From contig NZ_JAPNJX010000001.1 of the NCBI RefSeq assembly GCF_026626685.1, positions 76,752 through 140,751 of the forward strand: DNA of 64,000 nt, in the 5' to 3' direction. The translations under genes and the position numbers were made by a program. Source of the stretch: Nannocystis sp. SCPEA4 (GTDB lineage Bacteria; Myxococcota_A; Polyangia; Nannocystales; Nannocystaceae). Of this stretch, positions 3,751 to 57,145 are shown piece by piece (the stretch's first letter is position 1; each line of letters begins with the position of its first letter). The notes beneath the pieces were generated by a model. It saw nothing but the letters and a program-made list of their open reading frames with translations, had not been told where the DNA came from and did no database searches.

Positions 3751-4617
3751 TCAGAAGCGATAGACGTAACCGAGGCCGAGCTGGCTCGGCGAGACCTTGG
3801 GCTGCATCGCCTGCACGGCCTTCGACTTGCGCGCCTTCGGCACCAGCAAGAGCACCATGCCGACCACCGCCATCACGCCGCCGGCGATGAACAGGCCGTC
3901 GGCCGCGGCCGCCAGCGACTTGCCCTTTTGACCGGCCTCGCGCTGGTCGTCGAGCGTCTCCGCGGCCTCGAACTTGTTCTCTTGCCCCTTCGCCAGGCCG
4001 CCCGCGATCCCGCCGCCGATCAGCAGCGCCGCGCCGACGCCGAACATCGTGTAGCCGATCGGCCGCAGGATCTTGGCCTTGTTCTGCGGCGACTTGTCGT
4101 CGCCCGGCGGCGGCTGCGGGCCGAGCTGCGGGCCGACCGGCTGCGTCGCCTCCGGCTGCTTGGCCGGCTCGGGCTGCTTCGGCTTCTGCTTGGCCTCTTC
4201 CTTCTCGCGGATCTCGACGATCTTCTCGAGCGTCGCCAGCCGCTGCAGCGCCGTGTCACGCAGACCGATGTCGACCGACTCGTCGGCGATGAACCTCTGG
4301 TAGTAGGAGATCGCCGCGTCGACGTTGTTGGCCTGCTCCTGGATCCGGCCGATGTTGAACAGGATGTTCGGGTCGGGCTGCACCTTGTAGGCGCGCTCGA
4401 ACAACACCACCGCGGCGGCGTAGTCCTTCTCGCGGTACTTCGCCCGCGCCTGCTCGGCCAGGCTCTCGAACGTCTCGCCGTTGGCGTCGGTCGGGGGCGG
4501 CTCGGCCAGCGCCGCACGCACGGCGATCGGGACGTACACCGCGGCGGCCGCCGAGCGGGCGGGCATGCTCGAGGCGAGAAACGCTGCGGCCACGAGAGTG
4601 ACGATCGGCTTCTTCAT
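3751..4617 (-). CDS. TPR-repeat membrane protein (signal peptide, TPR, Pro/Gln-rich linker, C-terminal TM helix)
   Basis: Signal peptide MKKPIVTLVAAAFLASS, TPR-like helices, and a TM segment GVGAALLIGGGIAGGL. Confidence 0.55.
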   Translation of the reverse strand: MKKPIVTLVAAAFLASSMPARSAAAAVYVPIAVRAALAEPPPTDANGETFESLAEQARAKYREKDYAAAVVLFERAYKVQPDPNILFNIGRIQEQANNVDAAISYYQRFIADESVDIGLRDTALQRLATLEKIVEIREKEEAKQKPKQPEPAKQPEATQPVGPQLGPQPPPGDDKSPQNKAKILRPIGYTMFGVGAALLIGGGIAGGLAKGQENKFEAAETLDDQREAGQKGKSLAAAADGLFIAGGVMAVVGMVLLLVPKARKSKAVQAMQPKVSPSQLGLGYVYRF

Positions 4618-21905: not shown

Positions 21906-22004
21906 GCGGCGAACACTAGTCGATCCGGCGCCGGCGCGCCCGCGCCAGCGCGTGCGCCACCTCTTGCCGCGGGCTTGCCCGGCCCCCCCGGCTTCCTCCT
22001 ATTA

Positions 22005-22781
22005 ATGCCTCGCATGACCGACGCGCCCGCCCTCGCCGCTCGCGGCCTGTCGCACCGGCTCGCCGATCGGGTCCTCTACGACGGCCTCGACCTCGACCTC
22101 CGCCGCGGCCGGATCTGCGTGGTCGCCGGCCCCAACGGCGCCGGCAAGTCGACCCTCCTGCGCACCCTCGCCGGCCTCGACCGTCCCCAGGCCGGCCGCA
22201 TCGAGCTGCTCGGCGACTCGCTCGCCGCCCTCTCGCCCGCTGCGCGCGCCCGCCGGCTGGCCTATTTGCCGCAGCACTGCCCGGCCGAGCCCGACCTGCT
22301 GGTCCGCGAGGTCGTCCTCCTCGGCCGCCTGCCCAACCTCCCGCGCTTCGGCCCGCCGCGCGACGTCGACGCCGCCGCCGCCGCCGCCGCCCTCGACCGG
22401 CTCGGCCTCGGCGCGTTCGCCGACAGGCCGGTCGGCCAGCTCAGCGGGGGCGAGCGCCAGCGCGTCATGCTCGCGCGCATGCTCGCTGCCGACGCCGCCG
22501 TCGTCATCCTCGACGAGCCGGCAGCCGGCCTCGACATCGGCCACGCGCTCGGCCTCTACCGTCACCTGCGGGCGCTCGCGGGCGAGGGCGTCGCCGTCCT
22601 CGTCGCCGAGCACGACCTCGACCTCGCCCGTCGCCACGCCGACGACGCCGTGCTCCTGGCCGCCGGCCGCGCCCGCGTCGGCCCCTGCAGCGCCGTCTTC
22701 AGCCCCGAGCACCTCGGCGCCGCGTTCGGCGTGATCGCCCGCGAGCGAGACGGCCGCCTGTGGTTCGAGGCGTCCACGTAG
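22005..22781 (+). CDS. ABC transporter ATP-binding protein (FecE/FhuC-like), orphan
   Basis: Walker A GPNGAGKST, signature LSGGERQRV, Walker B ILDEP. No cognate permease adjacent. Confidence 0.8.
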   Translation: MPRMTDAPALAARGLSHRLADRVLYDGLDLDLRRGRICVVAGPNGAGKSTLLRTLAGLDRPQAGRIELLGDSLAALSPAARARRLAYLPQHCPAEPDLLVREVVLLGRLPNLPRFGPPRDVDAAAAAAALDRLGLGAFADRPVGQLSGGERQRVMLARMLAADAAVVILDEPAAGLDIGHALGLYRHLRALAGEGVAVLVAEHDLDLARRHADDAVLLAAGRARVGPCSAVFSPEHLGAAFGVIARERDGRLWFEAST

Positions 22782-23049
22782 CGACACGCCGGCGAGCCGC
22801 GAAGACGAAGCCGCGCATGCCGAACATGGTTCGCAACCCTGACACCGTCGAACGTCGATCCATTCGCAGGCGCTGACAGGCCGGCGAGCCGCGAAGAAGC
22901 GGCGGCCGTCCAACATCGTTCGCCGCGACACACGAGGCCTCGCGACCCGCTCATGGGCTCGCGCGACGACAGTCGCGCGAACGAAGTCAACCACGCAATT
23001 GTTCTTCGTACAGCTGTCACTTTCTCCTGTCGCCCTCAAGGAGCCGCCG

Positions 23050-24936
23050 ATGTCCGCGCGAACCGAGCCGAATTATGCCCGCTCACTGCTCGTCAACTGC
23101 ATGACCGTCTCGCTCGCCGCGCTGGTCCTCGCGTGCGAGCCCGCCGACGCTGCCGGCGATCCGGGAGCTCTCATCGACGTCGTCATGACCGGCCGCGTCG
23201 GCGTCGTCCTCGACGAGTTCCCCGCGGGCTCGCGCGACCGCGCCGCCGAGCTGTTCCTCGCCAAGCCGCTCGCGTTCTGGGAGGCGCGTGCGCGCCGGCA
23301 GACGCGCATGACCAACTACCGCCTCGCCTTCCGTCAGTTCTTCCACGACGACAAGTTGCAGCTGCCGCTCCCGCCCGACGCCGGCCTTCACTACGAGTTC
23401 GCCGGCGACGGCGCGCGCCGTGACAGCGTCGACGGCCACGACGTCGTCGTCATCGACTACACCCTCACCGGCACTCTCCTCGGCGACGTCGCCTCGATCC
23501 CCGCCTCCGAGCCCGCGCTCGTCGACGTCGGCGGCACCTGGGAGGAGCCCTTCGTCCTCCCGCTCGACCCCGAGTACCTGCGCCAGCGCACCGGCTACGC
23601 CTGCGTCGACGAGGAGGACTTCCCGCCCGACTCCTCGGACGAGGAGAACATCGCCGACTTCTTCGATCACGAGTGCGACGTCGAGGTCGCGCCCGACTAC
23701 GCCTGTCACCTCAGCGAGCCGCGGCCGACCGAGTCGTGCGTCGACGCGCTGCACGACCACGTCGGCGCCGTCGACACCGTCGTCCGCTTCGAGCGGCGCG
23801 CCTGGGATCCGCAGCGCGCCGACGAGGTGCGCCTCGGCGAGGTCACCACCCCCGACGCGCCCGACCTCGCCGTCGTCGGCGACGTCATCGGCAGCTCCGC
23901 CCGCCTCGTCTACCGCTACATCGCCCCCGACAGCTGCACCATGCGCGAGGGCTGCGTCGGCGGGTCCGGCTGGCGCCGCCTGCTGCAGTTCGACGCCAGC
24001 GTGCAGAACGTCGGCGGCGCCGACCTCCACCTCGGTGAGGTCGACTACTACGGCGAGGGCGTCGACGGCGAGCTCGCCGCCCACAACATCTACGAGTACA
24101 GCGACTGCCACCAGCACTATCACTTCCGTTTCTACGGCGACTTCGCCTACGCCACCGACGAGCACGCCGAGGGCTTCAAGCAGTCGTTCTGCCTGCAGAC
24201 CACCTCGCGCGCCGGCAACCACGAGAAGAGCCCGCTCAACACCCCCTACGGCAGCTGCGACTACCAGGGCATCGCCGCCGGCTGGGGCGACGACTACATC
24301 GCCGGCCTCGACTGTCAGTGGGTCGACGTCACCGACGTCGCCGTCCCGGGCGCCTCCGTCACCGCCCCGCTGGTCTTCACCTCCAACCCCGATCGCTTCC
24401 TCTGCGAGGGCGCCCCCGTGCTCGACGACGCCGGCGCCCGCCGCTACGAGCCCACCGACCTCAGGACCGAGACCGGCGCCGCCATCGAGCGGCCCATGTG
24501 CGAGTTCAGCAGCGGCTGGGACGGCAACAACGTCGGCGAGCGTCCGGTCGAGATCCCCGCCGTCGGCAGCTACGTCACCGCCGCCTGCGACCGCGAGCAG
24601 GAGGGCCCGCTGCGCAACTGCGGCTTCGCCGAGCAGACCGCCGCCATCGCCTGCAACGCCGGCGAGACCGTCGAGCTCGGGTGCACGATCCCCGCCGGCG
24701 CCGCGCCTATGGCCGTGCGCGTGTGCCCCGTCAGCGCCGTCCTCGGCGTCCCGCTCGCGTGCACGTACGTCCACGCGCTCGGAACCGGCGTCGTCGACGA
24801 CGGCGCCATGACCACCGTCCGCTTCACCTGCCCCGCCCCGCTCGCCGCCGACGAGCCCGGCGGCGAGGTCTCCCTGTTCACCGCCCCGCTCCTGCGCAGC
24901 GACCCGGGCGTCGAGGTCGCGTGCATGCCGCTGTGA
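23050..24936 (+). CDS. Lysyl oxidase-like copper amine oxidase lipoprotein
   Basis: Lipobox LVLAC. LOX catalytic-domain motifs CHQHYH, GFKQSFCLQTTS (cf. GHKASFCLEDTS) and DCQWVDVTDV (cf. DCQWIDITDV). RBS ggag before the ATG. Confidence 0.75.
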   Translation: MSARTEPNYARSLLVNCMTVSLAALVLACEPADAAGDPGALIDVVMTGRVGVVLDEFPAGSRDRAAELFLAKPLAFWEARARRQTRMTNYRLAFRQFFHDDKLQLPLPPDAGLHYEFAGDGARRDSVDGHDVVVIDYTLTGTLLGDVASIPASEPALVDVGGTWEEPFVLPLDPEYLRQRTGYACVDEEDFPPDSSDEENIADFFDHECDVEVAPDYACHLSEPRPTESCVDALHDHVGAVDTVVRFERRAWDPQRADEVRLGEVTTPDAPDLAVVGDVIGSSARLVYRYIAPDSCTMREGCVGGSGWRRLLQFDASVQNVGGADLHLGEVDYYGEGVDGELAAHNIYEYSDCHQHYHFRFYGDFAYATDEHAEGFKQSFCLQTTSRAGNHEKSPLNTPYGSCDYQGIAAGWGDDYIAGLDCQWVDVTDVAVPGASVTAPLVFTSNPDRFLCEGAPVLDDAGARRYEPTDLRTETGAAIERPMCEFSSGWDGNNVGERPVEIPAVGSYVTAACDREQEGPLRNCGFAEQTAAIACNAGETVELGCTIPAGAAPMAVRVCPVSAVLGVPLACTYVHALGTGVVDDGAMTTVRFTCPAPLAADEPGGEVSLFTAPLLRSDPGVEVACMPL

Positions 24937-24938
24937 CA

Positions 24939-24984
24939 CGTGTTCTTCAAGACATGTTCAAAAGAGCATGTCTTGAAGAACACG
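24939..24984 (+). terminator. Perfect 18-bp inverted repeat cgtgttcttcaagacatg/catgtcttgaagaacacg with 10-nt loop between the LOX gene and the next gene; hairpin terminator/attenuator or operator
   Basis: Arms are exact reverse complements. The element is AT-richer than its context and contains the recurring AAGACATG motif. Confidence 0.5.
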
Positions 24985-24992
24985 CCCATACC

Positions 24993-26117
24993 ATGCCCCA
25001 CCGCGAGCGAGCCGCCTCCCCGCCGCTCGCGCTCCTCGTCCTCCTGTTCACGGCCCTGCCCGCCGTCCCCGCCCGCGCCGGCAACCCCGTCCGCCCGCGC
25101 ACCCCCGTCGTCCACCTCGACGAGGCCTGCCTCGTCACCCTCGATCGCGCCGTCACGCCCACCGCCGCGCTCGCGTACACGATCCCGTACGAGGACACCT
25201 GCGACCTCCCCCACGCCGCGCCGACCCACCAGTTCTTCGCCCTCTGCCGCGCGCTCGCCCCCGGCGAGTCACTCCCGCAGTGGCTGTCCGACCTCGACCT
25301 GCACGCCGCCCTCACGACCGGCGTCCTCCTCCCGCCCGTCGTGCCCGTCGACATCGTCGCCTTCAACCCCGAGTGGTCGGGCTGCATCACCCGGATCGCC
25401 GCCCCCCGCGCGATCGACTGCGAAGCCGCCCGCGAGCCCGTCCTCTGGGATCTTCACGACATGTCCCCCGGGACATACGCCGTCGCGGCCTACACCTTCC
25501 ACCCGCCCGCCAACCTGTGGACCCCGCGCCGCGGCCTGTTCCGGATCGTCGACAGCGCCGCCGGCGAGCTGCCTCCTGCCGCCGCGTTCGCCAACCGCGA
25601 GACCTTCGTGTACGAAGGCGAGGCGCTCGACCTCGAGGTCTGCGTCGGCGCCGAGCCGGGCGCCACCGCCGACCTCGCCTACGCCCTGCACGCCGCCCCC
25701 GACACCTGGTTCCCGATCGCCGCCGACCTGCCGATCGCCGGCGATCGCCTGCACGTCCCGTGGGACCCGCCCCCCGAGCTCGCCGCCACCGAGCTCCACC
25801 TGCGCGTCTACATCCGCGACCTGTCCGGGCGCACCGCCACCGCCGTCGCCCCGGAGCTTGTCCACATCCTCGCGGTCCCCGGCGAGAGCGTCGAGCCGTC
25901 CATCCCCGACCCCGCGCCCGACATCTGCCGCCCCCCCGGCCAGGAGCTGCCCGCCGTCGACTGCGAGGATCGTTCCGGCACCGACGGACAGGTCCACGAG
26001 GACATGTCCATCAAGACATCCTGCAACCTCGCCGTCGCCAGTCCGCCCCCGCTGCTGGCCTTGCTCCTGCTCGTCCGCCGCCGCCGAGCGCCGGCGCGCC
26101 GGCACCTGGCAAAATAG
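24993..26117 (+). CDS. Secreted hypothetical protein with MYXO-CTERM tail
   Basis: Signal peptide LALLVLLFTALPAVPARAG. C-terminus CNLAVASPPPLLALLLLVRRRR. Confidence 0.6.
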   Translation: MPHRERAASPPLALLVLLFTALPAVPARAGNPVRPRTPVVHLDEACLVTLDRAVTPTAALAYTIPYEDTCDLPHAAPTHQFFALCRALAPGESLPQWLSDLDLHAALTTGVLLPPVVPVDIVAFNPEWSGCITRIAAPRAIDCEAAREPVLWDLHDMSPGTYAVAAYTFHPPANLWTPRRGLFRIVDSAAGELPPAAAFANRETFVYEGEALDLEVCVGAEPGATADLAYALHAAPDTWFPIAADLPIAGDRLHVPWDPPPELAATELHLRVYIRDLSGRTATAVAPELVHILAVPGESVEPSIPDPAPDICRPPGQELPAVDCEDRSGTDGQVHEDMSIKTSCNLAVASPPPLLALLLLVRRRRAPARRHLAK

Positions 26118-26155
26118 TTCGACGACACCCGCCGGTGCCGGGGACTTCACAGGTC

Positions 26156-26806
26156 ATGACCGCCTCGCGCCACCCATCTCTCGCCCTATTCCTCGTCCTC
26201 GTCACCGTGGCCCCCGCCTGCGTGCTCACCCCCGAGCTAGTCGGCGAGACGCTCACCGAGGGCGGGGACTCCGCCACGACCACCTCCGCCGGCACTGCGG
26301 CGAGCGTCACGATCACCACCGCCACGGACTCCGCCGGTCAACCGAATCCGCTGCTCTACGGCCAGCCGTGCGAGCTCGTCGCCGAGGTGTGGGAAGAGAC
26401 CGCCGACCCGCCCGACGAGGACGACGTGGCTCAGCCGATGGCCTCCGCGCTGTCGGTGAGCGAGCAGTGCGTGTCCGGCATGTGCCTCCTGATTTACGAC
26501 GACTACCAGCTGATCGACTGCGAGACCGACGCCGACTGCGGCAAGCCCGAGCTCATCTGCGCCGGCTCCGGCCACTGCGCGCTGGCGCCCGAGTACGTCG
26601 CCGAGCACACCCGCTGCACCCAGGCCTGCGAGACCGCCGCCGACTGCCCGGACATCCCGGGCTGCCAGACGGGTGTCTCCTGTGTGATCGTCAGCCGCCT
26701 CGGCGCCAATTGCTGCCGACCCGTGTGCGCGTGCAACGACCAGCTCAGCGTCGGTCGCAGCGAGGAGCTCGCCGCCATCTGCGCCTACGACCCCGAGTGC
26801 CCCTGA
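26156..26806 (+). CDS. Cys-rich secreted lipoprotein
   Basis: Lipobox TVAPAC, a Thr-rich linker, and 16 Cys in the C-terminal domain. Confidence 0.55.
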   Translation: MTASRHPSLALFLVLVTVAPACVLTPELVGETLTEGGDSATTTSAGTAASVTITTATDSAGQPNPLLYGQPCELVAEVWEETADPPDEDDVAQPMASALSVSEQCVSGMCLLIYDDYQLIDCETDADCGKPELICAGSGHCALAPEYVAEHTRCTQACETAADCPDIPGCQTGVSCVIVSRLGANCCRPVCACNDQLSVGRSEELAAICAYDPECP

Positions 26807-26861
26807 CGCCTGCGACCCGGGAGGCGGCCGAGGACCTCGTGCCGCCGTCGCTCGGCCTGCA

Positions 26862-26978
26862 CTCTCGGACATGTCCTCGACAACATGCCATGCCCTGGCC
26901 TCGCGCCCGCGCCCGCGCCCGCACGACACGAGCCCGCGACTCGCCTGCACTCCCGGACATGTCCTCGACAGCATGTCC
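26862..26978. repeat. Two direct copies of ctc(t/c)cggacatgtcctcgaca(a/g)catg in the 226-bp spacer before mqnD
   Basis: The copies start at ~26866 and ~26949 and each contains the GGACATGTCC palindrome. Confidence 0.45.
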
Positions 26979-27032
26979 CGCCGCGCCTCTCGCCCTCGGG
27001 TCTGCGCGGCAGCCCCGGCGCCCGGCATCGCC

Positions 27033-27857
27033 TCAGCGCGGCAAGAGCCCCGCCGCCTGCCCGCGCGCGCGCAGCTCGGCCAGCGCCGCCGCGCCCTCGG
27101 CCCCCATGTCGCGCGAGAACTGATTGACGTAGAGGGCGATGTGCTGCCGGCACACCTCGTCGCTCAGCTCCTGCGAATGCGCCTTGACGAACGGCCACGC
27201 CGCGGCCGGGTCGGCCTCCGCCGCCGCGATCGAGCGGGCGATCCCCTCCTCGACCGCGCGCACCTGCCAGGCCGGCAGCGAGCGGTGGGCCGCGATCACC
27301 CCGAGCGGCAGCGGCAGCCCCGTGGCCGCCTCCCACACCTCGCCAAGGTCCGCCACCTGCACCAGCCCGTGGTCGCGGAACACGAACCGCGCCTCGTGGA
27401 TCACCAGCCCCGCGTCGACCTCGCCGGCCGCGACCGCCGGCATGATGCGATCGAAGCGCATCGGCACCACCTTCGCCGACGCCGGGGCGAAGCAGCGCAG
27501 CAGCAGGTGCGCCGTCGTGTACGCGCCCGGGATGGCGATCGTCCGTCCCTCGAGCGCCTCGAGCTCGCCCGCCGCGCGCGCGACCACCAGCGGCCCGCAG
27601 CCGCGGCCCAGCGCCGCACCTGTCCGCAAGACCATGTAGTTGTGCTCGACCCAGAACAACCCGTGCGCGCTCAGCTTCGTCACCGGCAGCGGCTCCTCGC
27701 CGGCCAGCGCGCGCTCGTTGAGCGCCTCGATGTCGGCCAGCCACGGCAGCGGCCGCAGCCCCGGCACGAACTCCGGCACGCGCACCAGCGCGTCGAACAT
27801 CCACGTGTCGTTCGGACACGGCGAGAACCCGATCGGCAGCGGTTCGCTCGCGCTCAT
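27033..27857 (-). CDS. mqnD: 1,4-dihydroxy-6-naphthoate synthase (futalosine pathway)
   Basis: MqnA/MqnD periplasmic-binding-like fold family, ~274 aa with conserved N-terminal IGFSPCPNDT. Confidence 0.75.
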   Translation of the reverse strand: MSASEPLPIGFSPCPNDTWMFDALVRVPEFVPGLRPLPWLADIEALNERALAGEEPLPVTKLSAHGLFWVEHNYMVLRTGAALGRGCGPLVVARAAGELEALEGRTIAIPGAYTTAHLLLRCFAPASAKVVPMRFDRIMPAVAAGEVDAGLVIHEARFVFRDHGLVQVADLGEVWEAATGLPLPLGVIAAHRSLPAWQVRAVEEGIARSIAAAEADPAAAWPFVKAHSQELSDEVCRQHIALYVNQFSRDMGAEGAAALAELRARGQAAGLLPR

Positions 27858-56914: not shown

Positions 56915-57145
56915 CACAACATGTCCTCGCGGACATCTGCTCCCCGGATCGGGGCCGCACGGACGCCGCGCATGCAGGCGGACGTGCACCCGCTATCTCA
57001 GCGCCCGAGACGCGACAATTGTCGCGCCTGCCTGGCCCGAGAGACATGTCCGGATCGACCGCCGATCGTCCATGTCCCATCAGACATGTCCATGGCAGAC
57101 CCCGCGACCGCGCCACGGACATGACCATGAAGACATGTCCATGAA
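56915..57145. promoter_or_regulatory. Array of at least seven GACATGTCC-type sites in the promoter region of the 55286-56737 lipoprotein gene
   Basis: Sites in order: caacatgtcctcg, cggacatctgc, agacatgtccgga, tccatgtccca, agacatgtccatgg, cggacatgaccatg, agacatgtccatg. Confidence 0.45.

Follow-up and report, generated by a model that had tools for sequence, protein, structure and literature searches.

A gene for a predicted lysyl-oxidase-family lipoprotein and its putative surface-protein partner in Nannocystis sp. SCPEA4

Genes and features of the locus

We analyzed a 64,000-nucleotide stretch of the genome of Nannocystis sp. SCPEA4 (contig NZ_JAPNJX010000001.1, positions 76,752 to 140,751 of the forward strand; hereafter the window) that contains a gene, g1, for a predicted lipoprotein of the lysyl oxidase (LOX) family. 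On the same strand, g1 is followed by g2, which codes for a predicted secreted protein, and by g3, which codes for a second predicted lipoprotein; the intergenic gaps are 56 nt between g1 and g2, where a long hairpin is found, and 38 nt between g2 and g3 (Table 1). The G+C content of the window is about 70%, with 72–73% around the LOX locus, and the window is 97–99% identical to contig NZ_JAQNDN010000024 of Nannocystis radixulma. In their annotated frames the three genes have a G+C content at third codon positions (GC3) of the coding type, which drops to 0.53–0.54 upstream of the g2 and g3 starts in the frames of these genes. An AAGGAG motif is located at 23038-23043, 7 nt 5' of the g1 ATG. 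Both g2 and g3 are annotated as hypothetical proteins in Nannocystis sp. SCPEA4 (100% identity).

Table 1. Window coordinates of the genes and sequence features described in the text.
Feature	Position	Strand	Description
g1	23050-24936	+	628 aa, GC3 0.96; LOX-family predicted lipoprotein
g1 lipobox Cys29	23134-23136	+	signal-peptide pattern
g1 N-terminal domain	23152-23859 (~residues 35-270)	+	conserved alpha/beta; many invariant columns
g1 LOX catalytic domain	23818-24351 (residues 257-434)	+	flanked by two other domains
Cu site H354/H356/H358	24109-24123	+	g1 catalytic domain
LTQ precursor K377	24178-24180	+	g1 catalytic domain
LTQ precursor Y416	24295-24297	+	g1 catalytic domain
g1 C-terminal domain	24355-24933 (residues 436-628)	+	Cys-rich, all-beta
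Hairpin	24939-24984 (arms 24939-24959, 24964-24984)	+	A+T-rich, 21-bp stem, 4-nt loop
g2	24993-26117	+	374 aa, GC3 0.95; predicted secreted protein
g2 tail (Cys344 + hydrophobic + RRRR)	26022-26114	+	sequence SCNLAVASPPPLLALLLLVRRRR
g3	26156-26806	+	216 aa, GC3 0.92; predicted lipoprotein
g3 lipobox Cys22	26219-26221	+	PAC lipobox (...VAPAC22), invariant
32-nt direct repeat, family D15	22783-22814, 22875-22906	.	84% identical, 92 nt apart
40-nt direct repeat, family D2	26855-26894, 26943-26982	.	88% identical, 88 nt apart
GACATGTC sites	422, 2121, 9961, 14943, 16765, 25458, 26001, 26868, 26956, 57043, 57083, 57132	.	window positions

g1 retains the catalytic residues of the LOX family

The Pfam model Lysyl_oxidase (PF01186) matched g1 at 61 bits (gathering score 20.4; E 1.7e-16) and likewise matched all 20 g1 relatives in our alignment. 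A first-pass annotation of this DNA had named three animal LOX motifs in g1, and all of them are present in the translation: CHQHYH at residues 353-358, KQSFCL (the K-x-SFCL motif) at 377-382, and DCQWVDVTDV at 421-430. The sole sequence match in the PDB was human LOXL2 (5ZE3; E 1.6e-13 with the single protein and 2e-15 with a profile of 20 sequences), with 28% identity over 205 residues. In this alignment DCHQHYH of g1 falls on DCHRHYH of LOXL2 and EGFKQSFCL on EGHKASFCL, and GWGDDYIAGLDCQWVDVTDV, the D-x-Y...DCQW region of g1, is in register with its LOXL2 counterpart. His354, His356, His358, Lys377, and Tyr416 align with 5ZE3 chain positions 309, 311, 313, 336, and 372. As the construct begins at residue 318, these are His626, His628, His630, Lys653, and Tyr689 of LOXL2; the three histidines are its copper ligands, and Lys653 and Tyr689 are its lysyl-tyrosylquinone (LTQ) pair.

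The same residues are kept throughout the family. Among 178 full-length relatives, the copper-site histidines are conserved in 169–171, Lys377 in 171, and Tyr416 in 174, and Cys353, Cys381, and Cys422, which adjoin the catalytic residues, in 170–177. The first-pass annotation would have given up its assignment had the LTQ-forming Lys and Tyr been missing; since Lys377 and Tyr416 are both in register with LOXL2 and conserved across the family, the assignment holds. The predicted structure of g1 shows the LOX catalytic fold. Judged by sequence, g1 is a true LOX-family protein with all five catalytic residues intact, and it is very probably an exported copper/LTQ amine oxidase.

The catalytic domain is embedded in a larger protein. 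The AlphaFold2 (AF2) model of g1 has a mean predicted local distance difference test score (pLDDT) of 77.9 and a predicted template modelling score of 0.81, with pLDDT 88–98 over residues 41-180 of the N-terminal domain. Outside the LOX domain, the N- and C-terminal parts had no sequence match in Pfam or the PDB, and NCBIfam scans of g1, g2, g3, and the g2 tail gave nothing meaningful. The N-terminus of g1 (MSARTEPNYARSLLVNCMTVSLAALVLAC29-E) resembles a lipoprotein signal with the lipobox VLAC, and a lipobox-like Cys occurs at the same place in most aligned relatives (83 of 177 by a simple pattern). The alignment of 20 sequences contains 20 invariant Cys, which fits an oxidizing extracytoplasmic location of g1.

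g1 belongs to a widespread LOX subfamily

The first-pass annotation had described bacterial LOX homologs as rare and mostly confined to a few lineages, a view that our searches show to be outdated for this family. A word-indexed search with g1 returned 430 proteins, of which the best 120 are all 47–97% identical over 92–100% of the length. Several matches (Minicystis, Polyangiaceae, Byssovorax, Binatia) bear the NCBI name 'lysyl oxidase family protein'. An exhaustive search of 1.84 billion representatives at 50% identity gave 1,943 matches at E<=1e-3, 1,103 at 1e-10, and 170 at 1e-30. In a collection with one genome per species, 85 stretches encode a relative of full-length g1. They come from Myxococcota (many families), Chloroflexota (Ardenticatenaceae, Anaerolineae), Actinomycetota (Solirubrobacterales, Thermoleophilaceae), Acidobacteriota, Binatia, Rokuibacteriota, Bdellovibrionales, and Gammaproteobacteria; 80 of the 85 loci were kept for the analyses of this collection. 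g1 is thus a member of a widespread and already named bacterial LOX subfamily that is biochemically uncharacterized.

Some metagenome-assembled genomes (MAGs; GFS_4088, F1-120-MAGs237, Baikal-deep-G131) carry two full-length LOX genes on separate contigs. MAGs with two copies are JAYTOL01, SXOX01, and SHYY01. In a MAG that bears the name Nannocystis exedens, the LOX copy is just 48% identical to g1, which suggests paralogous lineages within the family. The loci behind these observations are L013, L014/L008, L026/L034, and L022/L079.

Bacterial LOX genes were described as 'widely distributed in Bacteria' in a study that also addresses the debate on where the matrix cross-linking enzyme of animals originated (PMC4448552). 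Prokaryotic LOX genes have been reported as frequent in Actinomycetes and some Deltaproteobacteria and absent from most prokaryotic genomes, and the Cys-rich C-terminal domain of the Sorangium cellulosum LOX WP_012233967.1 was pointed out in the same work (PMC6452851). That work also describes an archaeal enzyme from Haloterrigena turkmenica (HTU-LOX), which is described as having a hydrophobic signal at its N-terminus and a stretch that is autoinhibitory and, after refolding with copper, is an active amine oxidase sensitive to beta-aminopropionitrile, with a relaxed specificity that includes taurine, glycine, aminoglycosides, and polymyxin (PMC6452851). HTU-LOX is the only biochemically characterized prokaryotic LOX that we found in the literature, and on the function of myxobacterial or other bacterial LOX proteins our search returned nothing beyond these two papers.

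A g2 homolog adjoins LOX genes of the Nannocystaceae

A g2 homolog adjoins the LOX gene in all ten distinct contexts in which we observed one, namely the window, L001 (N. radixulma), L083 (Nannocystis pusilla), L204, L209, L205, L208, L081, L020 (a Nannocystaceae MAG), and P0002/P0123, where adjacency was deduced. Identities to g1 and g2 are 96% and 88% in L083, 87% and 72% in L204, 75% and 61% in L209, 67% and 45% in L081, and 48% and 42% in L020. In L205 and L208 a C-terminal LOX fragment (81% and 78% identical to g1) accompanies a g2 homolog of 67% and 60% identity. The LOX stop codon and the GTG start of g2 overlap (CTGTGA; GTGA) in L205, L208, and L209, a signature of translational coupling between LOX and g2.

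In the 80 species loci, searches by tblastn and hidden Markov model (HMM) found g2 solely in L001 and L020, and g3 solely in L001. All-against-all clustering of the six-frame open reading frames (ORFs) that lie up to 5 kb from LOX gave, for these loci, no neighbor family common across lineages; the largest flank cluster consisted of generic ABC ATPases (9 loci), and the others represented local synteny among related Chloroflexota.

The distribution of g3 is narrower than that of g2. It follows g2 solely in the closest relatives (the window, L001, L083, L204, and, by deduction, P0133). A convergent gene stands directly after g2 in L081 and L205, which lack g3; L209 has no g3 similarity, and in L208 no g3 gene was called after g2. 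The most distant g3 homolog, in L082, follows a cut ORF without detectable LOX or g2 similarity.

The first-pass annotation had joined LOX, g2, and g3 into one extracellular unit. Given the loci in which g3 is missing or uncalled and the 78 without g2 or g3, we rejected the three-gene unit. What survives of it is the tie between LOX and g2: on the ten contexts and the GTGA overlaps, we accept a LOX-g2 pair specific to the Nannocystaceae, and a functional tie between the two is plausible. g3 would be a later, genus-level addition whose tie to LOX is at most putative.

g2 is a predicted surface protein with a MYXO-CTERM-like tail

By inspection, g2 begins with a Sec signal peptide (...PARA|GNP). 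Residues 195-295 are confidently predicted as a beta-sandwich resembling immunoglobulin (Ig) and fibronectin type III (Fn3) domains (pLDDT ~90), the region before it being less confident, and a disordered linker precedes the C-terminal tail. We tried and dropped the idea that g2 is a copper chaperone, because the fold matches were generic Ig/Fn3 domains and the top ones included no metallochaperone. Pfam gave no match to g2.

The first-pass annotation had called g2 a protein with a MYXO-CTERM anchor. The defining parts of MYXO-CTERM sequences are a motif that contains Cys, a helix of hydrophobic residues, and a cluster of Arg (PMC11980579). The tail of g2 contains all three parts, and the protein has an N-terminal signal peptide: Cys344, in TSC344NLAVASPPP, is followed by the hydrophobic LLALLLLV and then by RRRR, and the AF2 model places a helix at residues 353-363. 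This layout is shared with the MYXO-CTERM sorting signal TIGR03901, which is processed by the myxosortase MrtX. Unlike that signal, the tail of g2 has the motif SCN rather than GCGC and a short hydrophobic stretch, and the curated NCBIfam MYXO-CTERM model matched neither the 66-aa tail nor the whole protein at E<=10. The only NCBIfam match was JDVT-CTERM, below threshold at 9.8 bits against 27. Databases hold just eight g2 homologs, all Nannocystis-like. The tail Cys occupies the same column in seven of the eight and is two residues off in the other, the Arg cluster is present in five of the eight, and the homolog P0125 has the canonical GCGC. The three-part tail is therefore real and the match to the curated TIGR03901 model is not; from its sequence, the g2 tail is best described as MYXO-CTERM-like.

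g2 and g3 are poor candidates for lysine substrates

The first-pass annotation had also proposed g2 and g3 as matrix or surface substrates of the oxidase. Mature g2 has a single extracytoplasmic Lys, K341, the other (K374) being in the cytoplasmic tail, and g3 has a single one, K130; neither column is conserved among homologs. The Lys content is 0.64% in g1, 0.53% in g2, and 0.46% in g3, whereas 20 further window proteins average 3.0%. These counts do not support the proposal, as so low a Lys content argues against a role as lysine donors in cross-linking. We gave no weight to the idea that the depletion is an adaptation to a coexisting amine oxidase because a few unrelated window proteins are equally Lys-poor; g1 itself has four Lys, including the catalytic one.

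These results bear on a model in which LOX oxidizes lysines of g2 and g3, cross-linking them into a matrix or surface layer as a single three-gene unit. Such a model would be consistent with the shared strand and short gaps, the predicted export signals of all three products, the constant adjacency of g2 and LOX, and the g1-g2-g3 order in N. radixulma, N. pusilla, and L204. Set against this are the sole, non-conserved Lys of each putative substrate and a Lys content of about 0.5%, the absence of g3 after g2 in L081, L205, and L209 and the lack of a call in L208, the L082 homolog of g3 that follows a cut ORF without detectable similarity to LOX or g2, and the 78 other species loci without g2 or g3 relatives in their flanks. 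We consider the model quite improbable. A macromolecular or surface amine is the target that we favor for g1 because of its putative lipid tether and its beta C-terminal domain.

A hairpin lies in an apparent insertion between g1 and g2

The perfect hairpin with 18-bp arms reported 3' of g1 by the first-pass annotation is present, and three further pairs (one of them G.T) extend its stem beyond the 18 perfect ones. As RNA it folds with -36.7 kcal/mol, compared to -12.4 +/- 2.7 for shuffled sequences (z -8.9), and 0 of 200 shuffles were as good. The hairpin had no match in Rfam. When metagenomes were scanned for one 17-nt arm of the hairpin, at least 120 single-arm matches turned up, as expected by chance for a 17-mer in a collection of that size, and none had both arms. 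In N. radixulma the hairpin is present with a single arm difference, which on the + strand, and only there, is still accommodated by a G.U pair. In N. pusilla it is reduced to the inner GACATG...CATGTC core (-15.8 kcal/mol), the outer stem being lost, and it is absent from L081 and from L205, L208, and L209, where the genes overlap at GTGA.

The hairpin lies within a 60-nt stretch (24933-24992) found in close relatives only, which has the same CTGTGA stop context as the relatives with overlapping genes. This stretch is in frame with g2 and free of stops in all three Nannocystis genomes; its GC3 is 35% compared to 95% in g2, and the peptide that it would encode is not conserved in N. pusilla. 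Because the junctions of the relatives overlap and the CTGTGA context is the same, the stretch is most likely an insertion, apparently a recent one, made in frame into a formerly overlapping g1/g2 junction. In L204, the junction between LOX and the g2 homolog P0124 (~3875-3960) contains a tandem duplication in the signal-peptide region (IRRALLP.ALSL... twice), seen in both DNA and protein, which shows that the LOX/g2 junction has been remodeled in more than one lineage.

The hairpin probably uncouples the expression of g2 (and g3) from that of g1 or tunes it relative to g1; it may instead be a terminator, a processing site, or a DNA-level operator. If it were a factor-independent terminator or attenuator ending the g1 transcript, g2 and g3 would form a separate unit. 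The very stable stem directly after the g1 stop and the N. radixulma difference that preserves pairing on the + strand would suit such a role. However, no U-tract follows the hairpin, the sequence after the stem being CGCCCATACC, and a promoter/terminator scan called no terminator at the hairpin and found no sigma-70-like promoter. With its A+T-rich stem, it does not qualify as a canonical intrinsic terminator. The loss of the outer stem in N. pusilla and the absence of the hairpin where the genes overlap also speak against termination, as do the half-copies, present in both arms, of the 8-nt GACATGTC-type palindrome that is enriched in intergenic regions of the window. Because of these half-copies, the hairpin could equally well be a site bound by a protein at the DNA level or a palindromic element that was inserted. 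We regard the terminator as a doubtful though not negligible alternative to the tuning role proposed above.

The palindrome GACATGTC occurs 12 times in the window, compared to 0.87 expected, and 0 of 100 shuffles reached 12. Eight of the 12 sites are intergenic by our reading of the ORF map, with three clustered at 57043-57139. Two sites are at the center of long palindromes, at 409-442 (perfect 17-nt arms) and 2109-2140 (95% complementary). The near-copies in the hairpin arms are AGACATGT and GCATGTCT. GACATGTC could be the binding site of a regulator or a family of palindromic elements.

g3, flanking genes, and repeats

In g3 the lipobox is followed by a Thr/Ser-rich linker and an acidic domain in which 18 Cys are invariant. 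Databases hold just seven homologs, all of which keep the lipobox Cys, and all 19 Cys of g3 are invariant among them. The first-pass annotation was right to see a Cys-rich putative lipoprotein and miscounted its Cys, giving 16. g3 had no match in Pfam and no meaningful match in NCBIfam.

Upstream of g1 are a YgiQ-type radical-SAM gene on the - strand and a lone ABC-transporter ATPase gene on the + strand (21987-22781), which lies directly 5' of LOX and is preceded by the radical-SAM gene, not by a permease gene. The ABC-LOX gene order is also found in N. radixulma, N. pusilla, L204, and L209. Downstream of g3 are convergent genes whose products contain domains of menaquinone biosynthesis (PF02621) and of the phosphorylase superfamily (PF01048). 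We found neither a second LOX gene nor another protein with a g2-like tail within the window.

The 268-nt intergenic region upstream of g1 (22782-23049), which contains the two 32-nt repeats, is likely to be its putative promoter/regulatory region. By eye, a near-palindrome resembling GAACATGGTTC or CAACATCGTTC follows each 32-nt repeat copy. The two 40-nt repeats, each containing GGACATGTCC, lie between g3 and the convergent menaquinone gene, in an intergenic stretch of 217 nt compared to 97 nt in N. radixulma, which is the only stretch that does not align between the two. Over 22000-27500, Rfam at E<=1 gave a single chance match to mir-598, far under threshold.

Discussion

Starting from the observed family membership, catalytic residues, fold, distribution, and synteny, we propose an account of the activity, localization, and substrate of g1 and of the roles of g2 and the hairpin. 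g1 would be a copper amine oxidase of the LOX family that is anchored by lipid outside the cytoplasm and works with g2 at the cell surface, a joint statement that we hold to be probable. His354, His356, and His358 would bind Cu(II), and Tyr416 would be oxidized and cross-linked to Lys377 to give the LTQ cofactor. The enzyme would then turn primary amines, whether peptidyl-lysine or other R-CH2-NH2 groups, into aldehydes and set free NH3 and H2O2, while its disulfide-rich C-terminal beta domain probably binds a polymeric target. In the Nannocystaceae, g1 and g2 would form a two-gene operon, with g2 most likely a co-expressed cell-surface partner, as a scaffold or targeting subunit, rather than a lysine substrate, and with the hairpin probably adjusting g2 and g3 output relative to g1.

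Comparison with known LOX proteins places g1 among them with some differences. It shares its catalytic motifs with animal LOX/LOXL proteins (PF01186; LOXL2, 5ZE3), yet has no SRCR domains, animal-type propeptide, or collagen/elastin context, and has instead a lipoprotein signal, a ~235-aa N-terminal domain, and a ~190-aa Cys-rich beta C-terminal domain. The proteins named 'lysyl oxidase family protein' in Polyangiaceae, Minicystis, Byssovorax, and MAGs have the full-length architecture of g1 (47–55% identity over 92–99% of the length), and Sorangium cellulosum WP_012233967.1 resembles it by its published description; unlike g1, these NCBI-named relatives outside the Nannocystaceae have no g2 partner. 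HTU-LOX, again by its published description, shares with g1 a prokaryotic LOX domain with the copper and LTQ residues, and it sets a precedent that prokaryotic LOX proteins can be active.

Several points weigh against the proposed account. The three-domain LOX family is without any biochemically characterized member, and the lipoprotein call for g1 was made by pattern inspection only. For g2, a longer form starting at GTG 24933 instead of ATG 24993 is conceivable. LOX is without g2 in 78 of the 80 species loci, so g2 would be dispensable for the enzyme in general; in L020 the g2 homolog is on the opposite strand to LOX, and adjacency inside one family could be inherited synteny. As to the catalytic domain, the PF01186 match spans model positions 50-163 of 204 only, so that the last third of the LOX domain known from animals is replaced or diverged in g1, and the catalytic segment (residues 331-420) has the lowest confidence in the AF2 model (pLDDT 47–76). 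The partial coverage and the low confidence would also fit a catalytically inert LOX-like protein with a structural or binding function, which we find barely credible when strong purifying selection acts, throughout the family, on all five catalytic residues and the Cys that flank them.

A broad small-amine role is a serious rival, if an unlikely one. g1 would then be a broad-specificity oxidase of amines that are soluble or foreign, be they polyamines, free amino compounds, cationic antibiotics, or amines on prey surfaces, with functionally unrelated neighbors, and would serve, with similarly low probability, nitrogen scavenging, detoxification, or H2O2-based antagonism. The relaxed specificity of HTU-LOX (PMC6452851) is in line with this role, as are the lack of a LOX neighbor conserved across lineages, which fits a stand-alone enzyme, and the presence of two LOX copies in several MAGs (JAYTOL01, SXOX01, SHYY01). 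The surface oxidase acting on a macromolecular amine is still the reading that we favor.

This reading could be extended to a more speculative one, to which we assign a low probability. LOX and a translationally coupled, Ig-like, C-terminally lipid-anchored g2 might form a dedicated cell-surface oxidase complex in the Nannocystaceae. It is about as much of a long shot that this complex cross-links extracellular matrix, sporangiole-wall, or prey-surface polymers via aldehydes, with the hairpin setting the ratio of the subunits. If true, the g1-g2 complex would be a bacterial counterpart of animal extracellular-matrix cross-linking, recruited for myxobacterial multicellularity or predation.

The locus itself represents an annotation-level confirmation and no new kind of system. 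We know of no bacterial LOX whose physiological role has been established. The form of about 620 aa with three domains is common in environmental Myxococcota, Chloroflexota, and other phyla, with its catalytic residues under selection, and in the Nannocystaceae LOX appears to have gained a surface partner of its own that is co-translated with it. This partner, g2, offers a concrete handle on the native target of a bacterial LOX.

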